From a virus (lineage: Duplodnaviria; Heunggongvirae; Uroviricota; Caudoviricetes): a DNA stretch of 5,944 bases. This document shows, piece after piece, positions 1 through 3,000 of the stretch. Made by a program: the position numbers. The stretch lies in the IMG/VR virus record IMGVR_UViG_2531839200_000013, one strand, 5' to 3'. Positions within the stretch are counted from its first letter, which is position 1. Every line of letters starts with the position of its first letter.

Positions 1-3000
1 ATTACAGATTTAAGGGTGAACAAATCCCTGCCATTGCTGGCATATAAGAATGAAATCGGATGTTTATTACGGAACTGTTTTAAAGACCTGCCGGGATTTC
101 GTTATTATCCTGGTGAATAACTTTATCGACAGGGTAACAGTTACCGGGAATTTTCTGTTCGGTTGCTGCAGTCACACACTCCTGCATTGTCCTGTGAACA
201 CTGACTGCAATATCAACTGGCTCTCCGGAAACAAGAAAAACTGTCAGAACAAGTGCAAATGCTGTATTCATTGCCAGCATCCTTTTTGTATCGGACGTAA
301 ACGGGCCAGCATTGAAAGAATGCATATTTTATTTAATAACTCCCGTTCGTGTTTTCTCTTGTTAATGGCATCTTCAGTAAATACAGGGTTACTGATAGTG
401 ACACCAATTTCAAAACAACCTTCAGACGTATTAACGTTTGGTAATAACGTTTCCATTATCGCGTCCTCAACAATGAATTTTGTGATGCGGTGCCTGGTGC
501 CTCCAGGTGACGTTAACCAGTTAACAATTAACGCCGGATACAGAGAATCCACCCATAACACTGTTTTTAGCTTTAACTGTTCCGCGTGCGCTTAGCCGCA
601 TTCACTGCATCACAAAATTCACTTTAAAAAGGGCGGACATCAGTTCATGGGCAAACAGATGCCGCCAAACGTCACCAGAAAATTGATAACAGAGGGCGTT
701 GCAGCGGGGTTGTCACTTAAGCGTATGGTCAACCTGACAACCCGGTGTCCTCAACGGGGAAGGAATAACCCCGCCATACTTACCGCTGCGCCATTTCGCG
801 GAGTGCCACAACCGGAAGCGCACGGTCGACGAAAATTTAACGACAGGCTATCTATGAACCAGCAACCTCGCCGTGCGCTTTCGCGTTATGCTCTGACTTT
901 TCAGAGAAATATCCTTTCAGTAAACTGTCAGTGCCGGATGTTCACCCGTGTCCGGCGCACGCACTCCACTTCACCCGTGGAGAACTCCTTAATTACCAAC
1001 CCTCAGGAGGGTGAATGTTAAAATCAACTCTTATTGCTAAATGCCTTTATCAAAATCGCATGGTAAGCAGCATTTCAATAGGCGAGTCTGCAGTTAAAAG
1101 TATTTTCGAAGAGTACTTTCCCGGGCATGATTTTAATAAATGGAATACCAAATTACCGCCAGCAGTTTCAACGCGTATTCTGAAAGCAACCGAAAGAGCA
1201 AGTACAATTCGCGTTAACTATTTCATTAAAGATTTGTGGGATCTTTGATATCCACAGAGCCTAAAGTATGTGCATATGGATGTGCTATTATGCGCCCTCG
1301 CAGATTTGCATCATTTTCTAAATTCACTGAACGAAACAGGGCATCAACAAGGCTCTGTACAATGCAAAGGCAATCGAAGACTGTCGCCGTTTCTGTTTTG
1401 ATTGATGAAAGAACATGGCCATTCACGCAAACAGAAATTACCCGTTTATTAACATCGCTTTCCTGCTTTTGATTATCAGAACCATATAGCCCAGAAAAAG
1501 CATTGCGCACATTACGAACCATATTATCGATGGTTTCTTTTTCTGCGGTACTAAGGTCAAGAGTAGCCAGTTGTGAACGAACTATATTCGATGCCATTTC
1601 CTGTAATGGCGTTGGTAAATCTTTAAATTCCATTATTAGCCTCGTTGGTTAGCTATTAACGTGGGTATGTAATCATTCTGGCAATGCTTAATGCCGCTGC
1701 TTTTTCCAGATTGGTGATATCCTGCTCCAGAGCGGACAGATTTTCAGCCTGCTTAGCCCTGGCTTCATTGGCCCATTTCAGGTCCTGCACCGCCTTAATT
1801 TTCTGGTGCATCCACTCATAAAGTTCATCATCGGTATAGTCTGGCGCGATGATGACGGGGTCTCGTTTCTGCATGTCGGCTCCTTGTGGTTAGCGTTGCC
1901 TGCTTTTTAACCACGTCAGGCGAGGTGGTATCCTCTGAGGGGTCTGTTACTCGAGAGGAAATTGGTTATGAATACAATCAAGTTTTCTTGCCCAGAATGT
2001 GGTGGCTAAGTCTTTGACACATCCTTTAAGCCGCAGGGCTCTGACAGTTTCGCGGGAGCCATCTGCAAAAATTGTGGTCACCTTGTAACTGAAGATGAGT
2101 CCTCGCAGTTCGATGACGAAATCGTTGACAATATCTTCGGTGCACTCACCAGAGACTTTCTGAAGTAAAGGCGCATACCGCTTAGTTACCGCTCTGATAA
2201 CTCTTACCTGTCCGGCAATGGCGCTGATATCAATATAAAGCGCCATCGCTGTTTCTTTGCTGATCCCTGGACGCCTTCCATTCTGATGTTTGACTTCGCC
2301 CACTGAGAAATCCTCTGCTTCCCCTTAACGCCGGGTAGCGGAACTGTTTGCTGAGAACACCGTGCGGTGTCTTGATGAGTAGAATTTAGAATAGCCTAAG
2401 AGTTATGGTCAAGCTTTTTGTGTAGAAAAACCTAAGCTTCTTGATGTAAAAAACACAAGTATTTGAAAGTTTGTGCTTTTTATTACAGAGAGTTGCGAAA
2501 AAAAGGGGGGTTATTTATTTGCGCTTCTTTTGCGAGCTTTGAGTAGTTCTTCAAAAAGTTTGTTGAAATTCTCAACTCGAGCACGCATCTCTGACAACAG
2601 AGCCTTTTGCTCTGACTCAGGCAGTGCGTCGAACAGTTGAAGCAACTCTTTTTGATCTTCTGTCAGATTGACTGGCTGATTATCTGGGATCGGTTCGCCT
2701 GGTTGCTTATCTTCATCTCCAAAAAGAAGCCAAGTCGGCGAGCACTGAAGCGCCTGGCTCAGTGCGAATAATCTCTTCCCCGCTGGCTGTGTTTCATCTC
2801 TTTCCCATTGAGAAATTGTTACGTGAGCCACTTTGACCAGCTTACCTAATGCGGCCTGAGACAGTTTTAATTTTTTTCGCCTGTATAAGAGGCGAGCACC
2901 GAAGGTTTCGTTTTTCATATTAGGTAATTCTAATTTTTCTTGACTTAGGTTTCTCTACGATCTAGTTTCCTTAGGAAAATCTAAGGGGTTCGATATGTTG

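Follow-up and report, generated by a model that had tools for sequence, protein, structure and literature searches.

The sieB gene (Rac, lambda, P22), rexAB, and bstA are accessory genes located in or beside the early-left region, which are expressed from the repressed prophage and are variable among related phages. The present analysis deals with two small convergent genes, called here A and B, that lie between ydfC and the small RNA (sRNA) DicF in a virus of the class Caudoviricetes (IMG/VR record IMGVR_UViG_2531839200_000013; the whole stretch of DNA analysed, 5,944 nt long, is referred to as the window). These genes constitute a widespread prophage gene pair, already catalogued and uncharacterised, and not an insertion specific to Escherichia coli O157.

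As for sieB, rexAB, and bstA, the product of B has been detected in uninduced lysogens. B differs from sieB in that there is no sequence or domain similarity between them, and its product is predicted to be a soluble, helical, RNA-associated protein of 77 amino acids (aa) with a conserved convergent partner. It also resembles Rop/Rom and FinO/ProQ, which are mobile-element proteins acting on sense/antisense RNA pairs: B is small, basic, and helical, contact with RNA has been reported for it, and its locus is on a mobile element and necessarily yields complementary transcripts. Concerning the layout, facing transcription units that overlap at their 3' ends within a regulatory region are also present in lambda cII/oop, P22 ant/sar, and type I toxin-antitoxin loci. 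However, those systems combine a protein with a small RNA, whereas A and B are both conserved proteins.

The dicBF locus is a textbook prophage locus, and the K-12 region upstream of DicF has been described as a "long untranslated region" (Balasubramanian et al., mSystems 2016, PMC5069750). Yet this "untranslated" region holds the conserved gene pair in 12% of the complete E. coli genomes, and the K-12 form of the locus is probably the deleted state.

A conserved convergent gene pair

Positions 1-5604 of the window show 99.9% identity to a lambdoid prophage integrated at ompW in E. coli O157:H7, which corresponds to Sp9 in strain Sakai and lies within O-island 57 (OI-57)/CP-933O in EDL933. Gene A (135 aa) occupies positions 1226-1633 of the minus strand and gene B (77 aa) positions 1015-1248 of the plus strand, with an overlap of 23 nt between their 3' ends (1226-1248). 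Both genes have a ribosome-binding site, AGGAGG at 1005-1010 for B and GAGG at 1640-1643 (minus strand) for A. All these elements coincide with an earlier reading of the stretch from its sequence alone (hereafter the original prediction), in which "operon sense" means the minus strand, where the repressor gene, ydfC, DicF, and dicB are also located. In RefSeq both open reading frames (ORFs) are labelled as hypothetical proteins, A being WP_000394552.1 (ECs_1763, or ECs1763, of Sakai Sp9) and B WP_000920491.1 (ECs_1762, or ECs1762).

A matches the PHROGs families phrog_1363 (E = 4.8e-47, residues 1-130) and phrog_23433 (E = 1.7e-8, residues 55-128), the latter being matched by the homologues of other genera at 1e-17 to 1e-24, and B matches phrog_10348 (E = 1.1e-47, residues 1-77 of 77). 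Given these full-length matches, A and B are already catalogued as phage protein families. The three families are labelled "unknown function", and their entries contain neither the pairing, nor the leader described below, nor a link with RNA binding. Hidden Markov model (HMM) searches of both proteins in Pfam, NCBIfam, and PADLOC gave no match, as expected from the lack of a recognisable family signature pointed out in the original prediction. With a threshold of E <= 1, none of the PADLOC-DB v2 families was matched by A, B, or YdfC, and no relatives of A, its C-terminal part (A-core), or B were found among the PDB sequence profiles.

In each A-core locus examined (Serratia, Dickeya, Klebsiella, Hafnia, Citrobacter, Leclercia, and Proteus), a homologue of B faces the A-core and overlaps its end by 20-51 nt, and there is also a distant metagenomic A-core/B pair, whose B matches the profile at E = 6e-16. 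In total, homologous pairs are found in at least eight genera besides that of the window. Across the pairs kept, the identity of B to that of the window goes from 32% to about 65%. At the sequence level, both genes thus stay paired and overlapping from one genus to another. In these non-E. coli genera A is usually located directly after a cI gene of the S24-peptidase type; where the locus was scanned (Serratia and Hafnia), a terminator and a conserved promoter-like site, TTGAC(G/T)-16-TAAACT, precede A, so A is the first early-left gene there. Among 50,697 deposited phage records, the A-core/B pair was found only in the PPompW prophage records and phage Evi.

In the window, A belongs to the repressor-controlled early-left (dicB-type) operon. 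The minus strand carries the DicA-like repressor gene (2511-2918), ydfC (1656-1874), A, DicF (631-680), and dicB (268-456), as well as ydfD. A promoter-like site follows the repressor gene at 2412-2383 (minus strand), and the scan gave no terminator-like site on this strand between it and A. The plus strand carries the cro-like gene, the replication genes, and also B, which is antisense to the early-left operon. On the plus strand, B is followed by a single terminator-like site, located at 1679-1705, immediately beyond the start codon of A.

Gene B and its reported contact with RNA

Homologues of B, also of 77 aa and with 55-72% identity, are present in Klebsiella, Raoultella, Serratia, Dickeya, Xenorhabdus, Yersinia, Morganella, Salmonella, Proteus, and Photorhabdus. 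Both ends of the family are nearly invariant, with MLKSTLIAKCL at the N-terminus and FIKDLW at the C-terminus. An exhaustive profile search gave 163 clusters at 50% identity, nearly all of them stand-alone proteins of 74-80 aa, and the species-representative genomes contained only four B loci. The name "dGTP triphosphohydrolase" given to B in one source is backed by nothing and is treated here as a mis-annotation.

B is basic (isoelectric point 9.5), and its AlphaFold model, with a mean predicted local distance difference test score (pLDDT) of 96.7, is a compact five-helix protein that has no neighbour in the PDB. Neither its sequence nor its predicted fold is similar to the known RNA-binding domains considered (Hfq/Sm, CsrA, FinO/ProQ, KH, S1, CSD, and Rop).

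The B protein of the window is 100% identical to ECs_1762 of Sakai, for which experimental data are available. Zammit et al. (Nucleic Acids Res 2025, PMC7618764) obtained the ultraviolet-crosslinked RNA-associated proteome (TRAPP) of Sakai in MEM-HEPES, with no induction, and ECs1762 was significantly enriched in it. Furthermore, it was one of the four island-encoded proteins confirmed by polynucleotide kinase (PNK) end-labelling, with a signal above background, and no detectable RNA-binding domain was reported in it (PMC7618764). In the same work, the arabinose-induced cultures of tagged ECs1762 reached an optical density (OD) of 0.8, which speaks against an overt toxicity of B. RNA binding has therefore been flagged for B in the literature, and its fold, predicted with confidence, has no known relatives. 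The orphan RNA-binding report also gains a context, which is a conserved antisense architecture beside a processed sRNA and two division inhibitors.

Gene A and its two parts

The N-terminal domain of A (residues 1-58, MEFKDLP...AFSGLY; 1460-1633, minus strand) also heads other proteins with unrelated C-termini. In Escherichia and Salmonella, this MEFKDLP...AFxGLY domain is found at the head of at least six early-left protein types (121, 124, 126, 133/137, 135/201, and 208/212 aa), and the C-termini that follow it are unrelated among these types. Outside these two genera, the homologues of A lack the N-domain or have it replaced by a ClpX-type zinc finger, as occurs in Citrobacter, where the A-core carries a ClpX-type C4 zinc finger instead (PF06689, 36-39 bits; cut-off 27). 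This distribution suggests that the N-domain could be an exchangeable oligomerisation or targeting module. Apart from the window, the MEFKDLP...AFxGLY domain was seen in proteins P0043-P0120 and at 2039-2404 of locus L039.

The A-core (residues 59-135; 1226-1459, minus strand; phrog_23433) is the part that accompanies B as its conserved partner. Many Enterobacterales have stand-alone proteins of 75-80 aa that share 35-45% identity with the A-core, and the ratio of nonsynonymous to synonymous substitution rates (dN/dS) of the A-core is ~0.4 within E. coli. Both A and B are real genes under purifying selection. From a practical point of view, ecs1763 has been used as a polymerase chain reaction (PCR) marker of OI-57 in the typing of Shiga toxin-producing E. 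coli (STEC), and for this reason its distribution and mosaic structure matter for the reading of STEC assays.

The AT-rich segment and the K-12 Qin prophage

The content of guanine and cytosine (GC) of the segment 1015-1655 is 38.8%, versus 47.6% in the whole window, 51.8% in 600-1014, and 48.4% in 1656-2300; in the comparison of the cassette with its surroundings in the window, the figures were 38.8% and 48.6%. A sliding calculation placed the start of the minimum-GC segment of 641 nt at 1018 (rank 0.2%), which confirms the AT-rich island described in the original prediction. Its interpretation as inserted foreign cargo is not supported, since both genes, with an equally low GC, are also found in other lambdoid prophages and in phage Evi, a result that the original prediction had named in advance as contrary to it. 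In the nine loci compared (the window and eight others), the GC of the cassette is always 3.5-11 points under that of the rest of the locus, and therefore its AT-richness is a property of the cassette and not a sign of recent arrival in O157.

The pairwise alignment with K-12 Qin (NC_000913) showed a single clean gap of 634 bp, which corresponds to 1002-1635 of the window, between flanks that are ~95% identical. K-12 has only leader sequence at this point, as stated in the original prediction. The occupied state is present in 646 of the 5426 complete E. coli genomes (12%, O157:H7 included), and the empty K-12-type junction in 2697.

On the other hand, the alignment speaks against the idea that the genes were inserted into the leader of the dicB operon. 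The 22-nt spacer between ydfC and A (1636-1655, minus strand), with the Shine-Dalgarno sequence of A at 1640-1643, is outside the gap, and K-12 keeps it with mutations that turn GAGG into AAAG. Most of the leader of B is also outside the gap and is kept in K-12, including its inverted repeat (933-956) and the CTCCT motif (985-989). Moreover, the order ydfC-A-B is found in Proteus too, where the YdfC homologue belongs to phrog_1744. A deletion in the K-12 lineage is more economical on account of these three features, and from the alignments it is fairly probable that K-12 Qin lost the cassette rather than O157 having gained it.

The same results apply to the typical footprint of a moron that had been attributed to the island. 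The cassette is present or absent at one site in collinear relatives (the 634-bp difference with K-12 Qin), its base composition is unlike that of its flanks, and the B protein has been detected in uninduced enterohaemorrhagic E. coli (PMC7618764). This part of the proposal is maintained, but not the part that made the island an insertion.

Mosaicism within E. coli

The island had been considered as one unit. The comparison of sequences indicates that it is not, and that the N-domain of A, the A-core, and B each have a history of their own. When the window is compared with strain UTME-13, the synonymous divergence (dS) is 0.40 for the A-core and 0.04 for B. Within the 135-aa family, the N-domain has two alleles that assort independently.

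B can also be exchanged for another small gene. In eight E. coli genomes and some Salmonella, precisely the coding sequence of B (1016-1249 of the window) is replaced by a 66-residue C-terminal extension of A together with a different convergent gene of 63 aa (phrog_2605), with an overlap of 23 nt, and the leader and Shine-Dalgarno sequence of the replacing gene are those that B uses. In one E. coli lineage (protein P0023; L029 ~3528-3540), a tandem duplication, GTACTCTTCGAAA, frameshifts B and leaves A intact, and the B pseudogene stands beside an intact A in loci L029-L031. Regarding the other cassette types, a cognate pairing is not claimed: only a marginal similarity was seen between the 63-aa and 66-aa partners (E = 0.024), and their minus-strand partners do not align in the C-terminal part.

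The leader shared by B and other antisense genes

In the loci of genera other than E. coli, B is preceded by a leader of ~75 nt with the consensus GTGTGCCTGnCTTTTcACCACnTCAGGCtCGGTGGTATCyTTGG, N12-16, CCAAGAAGGA, N5-9, ATG. This canonical leader reads as a sigma-70 promoter, with a -35-like TTCACC, a spacer of 16 nt, and an extended -10-like TGnTATCTT. It also has inverted repeats, which are nested, and a stretch that can pair with the Shine-Dalgarno sequence. The complementarity between both stretches is greater than the shuffled expectation and modestly greater than in swapped controls. RNAalifold gave a single helix of 5 bp with one covarying pair; the folds of individual leaders are not consistent among themselves, and their z-scores lie between -2.5 and +0.2. 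Rfam detected nothing except DicF in the leader and the island.

The leader of B in the window (931-1014, plus strand) appears to be a degenerate copy, aligned by eye with those of other genera. It presents the inverted repeat GCCGGA (933-938)/TCCGGC (951-956) flanking TTCACC, and its CTCCT (985-989) is complementary to the AGGAG (1005-1009) of the Shine-Dalgarno sequence, which precedes the ATG at 1015.

The window also contains a canonical copy (1897-1934, plus strand), detected with nhmmer at E = 1e-11 using a profile built solely from the leaders of B genes of other genera. It is located immediately upstream of a zinc-ribbon (CxxC) gene of the ECs_2282 family (NF047912; 1968-2168, plus strand). 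In the window this gene has an in-frame TAA at codon 14, where phage Evi has GAA and an intact gene, which gives 57 bits with NF047912. The zinc-ribbon gene is antisense to the early-left operon, and RefSeq mostly annotates instead the minus-strand shadow ORF at 1947-2246 as a hypothetical protein.

Furthermore, the leader precedes two Citrobacter genes of 147 and 148 aa, as well as antisense small genes of mEp460 and phiES15, each of them convergent with an early-left gene and overlapping it. Unrelated antisense small genes are found behind the same leader in many genera, including those of HannyBb and the Hafnia phages. Further copies were located in L010-L027, among them L020 (4516-4587) and L023 (4378-4443), and in L039 and L040 (1801-1837 in both). 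The presence of one leader before several unrelated antisense genes points to a shared expression platform, and at the sequence level it looks like a common one for antisense prophage cargo. A GhoS-like identity of the phiES15 partner was also considered and found no support.

Possible function of the gene pair

With a probability of roughly 0.45, A and B form a functionally coupled convergent cassette which would work as a reciprocal switch between lysogeny and induction, B being associated with RNA. The proposed mechanism would be the following. A would be transcribed with the repressor-controlled early-left operon and so made only after induction or infection, and B would be transcribed in the opposite direction from its own leader in the repressed lysogen, giving a small, basic, helical protein in contact with RNA. 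Given the tail-to-tail overlap, transcription in the sense of B enters A in antisense orientation, and strong transcription of the early-left operon crosses B and its leader, again as antisense. In the lysogenic state B would be on and A off, and B, jointly with the antisense transcript of its own gene, may act on the early-left RNA, where DicF and DicB are also carried. Once the repression is lifted, A would be on and B shut down, and A could take over from B or counteract it. The conserved linkage suggests that A and B may act on each other or on the same RNA; this RNA target and the mutually exclusive expression of both genes are presumptive. The same design, in which a leader-driven antisense small gene faces an early-left gene, recurs in mEp460, phiES15, and the 201-aa/63-aa variant. 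In a broader version, which is rather unlikely, B would represent a new RNA-binding fold, and A/B would be one type of a polymorphic set of convergent two-gene switches of lambdoid prophages. In each type an early-left gene, often headed by the exchangeable MEFKDLP or ClpX-type zinc-finger N-domain, would be opposed by a small antisense gene under the shared leader, and the two would jointly gate the early-left RNA (with DicF/DicB or Kil) between lysogeny and induction.

Several observations weigh against the reciprocal switch. The PNK assay was carried out on over-expressed tagged ECs1762 (PMC7618764). The scan of the window found no sigma-70-like site for B, and nhmmer with the canonical-leader profile gave no match at the leader of B; since the search does not see it, its homology to the canonical leader is based on position and shared features only. 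The predicted structure of A is unusable (pLDDT 44, from a shallow alignment), and this low-confidence model suggests two helices for the N-domain and, for the core, a hairpin with a long helix after it. The A-core has two E. coli alleles that are 75% identical and B is nearly invariant, a discordant divergence that gives no sign of co-evolution. In addition, each gene can be found alone: there are homologues of B without A in Psychrosphaera and beside a terminase gene, and A is found without a working B in L029, where B is frameshifted, and in the 201-aa variants, where it is replaced. Finally, the overlap could by itself hold A and B together.

The discordant divergence and the occurrence of each gene alone, along with the precise replacement of B in E. 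coli, are also what would be expected if A and B were functionally unrelated accessory genes that travel together only through their overlapping ends. This is an improbable alternative, as the adjacency and the overlap have been kept while B diverged to 32%-about 65% identity, and in a more distant metagenomic pair, and the linkage survives although the rest of these genomes is highly mosaic. There would be no explanation for the strict pairing of A-core and B in the different genera if B alone were a lysogenic-conversion gene, devoted to superinfection exclusion or anti-phage defence at a hot spot proximal to the repressor, with A as an unrelated early gene. The genes rexAB, sieB, and bstA sit next to cI, and B shares with them the cI-adjacent position, apart from being made as a protein in the lysogen, having a low GC in every host, and existing in stand-alone form. 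Nevertheless, B has no PADLOC match and no enzymatic or membrane domain; concerning a SieB-type exclusion, there was no Pfam match and the model of B is a compact five-helix protein, a transmembrane predictor not having been applied to A or B. An exclusion function of B alone is considered just as improbable as the co-travelling of unrelated genes.

A slightly lower probability is given to the possibility that the functional unit is the antisense transcript and not the proteins. It would be a cis brake on leaky early-left transcription that silences dicF/dicB or kil in the lysogen, by means of transcriptional interference or RNase III-sensitive duplexes. This would fit with the location of B, always upstream of the division inhibitors in operon sense, with the unrelated antisense genes behind the same leader in the same operon, and with the only plus-strand terminator-like site after B being past the start codon of A. 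However, the B protein is strongly conserved, which means that the protein itself matters, and the downstream genes in Serratia, Klebsiella, and similar loci are not division inhibitors. The least probable explanation is a toxin/antidote-like addiction or abortive module, with antisense control exerted through the convergent overlap in the manner of type I loci. The close pairing of two small genes by their 3' ends, polymorphic minus-strand proteins with varied small partners in one slot, and the RelE/ParE modules in the same operon of relatives could be seen in this way. Against it, no toxin-antitoxin or defence HMM matched, no type II toxin-antitoxin domain was found in A or B (Pfam, NCBIfam, and PADLOC), and the genes are convergent with overlapping 3' ends instead of forming the co-transcribed, co-directional bicistron of type II systems. 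Moreover, the growth of the induced cultures of tagged ECs1762 to OD 0.8, the intact A beside a B pseudogene in L029-L031, and the persistence of the A-core where B is replaced are indirect points against a toxin held in check by its partner. The roles in defence or as a toxin/antitoxin pair put forward in the original prediction find no support in these results.

Other features of the window and related loci

The DicF of the window differs from that of K-12 by changes in the hairpin loop and the upper stem. Its Rfam score (43.5 bits, E = 6e-8) is below the gathering score of 48, and this is why the default Rfam annotation misses it. In a Serratia prophage (L012 3709-3791, minus strand), there is a weak DicF-like Rfam match (21.7 bits, E = 0.045) downstream of A/B in operon sense; it overlaps the start of a YfdP-family gene and could be due to chance.

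In related dicB-type operons, RelE/ParE-type toxin-antitoxin modules are located between the repressor gene and ydfA (L004 3046-3527; L007 2694-3172; L009 2685-3156); small two-gene cargo thus has a general place in the early-left operon.

In TW14359 the DnaT-like replication gene consists of one coding sequence of 347 aa, and the window has two ORFs in its place (3654-4511 and 4484-4768). The alignment to TW14359 presents two gaps, so there is probably a frameshift in this gene, at ~4484-4560 of the window. Beyond position 5604 the Sp9-type identity ends, and the remaining sequence (5605-5944) contains the C-terminal part of a transposase of the insertion sequence family IS3 (IS629-like; ORF 5647-5937, minus strand). 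This IS629-like element sits inside a DUF1627-family gene.

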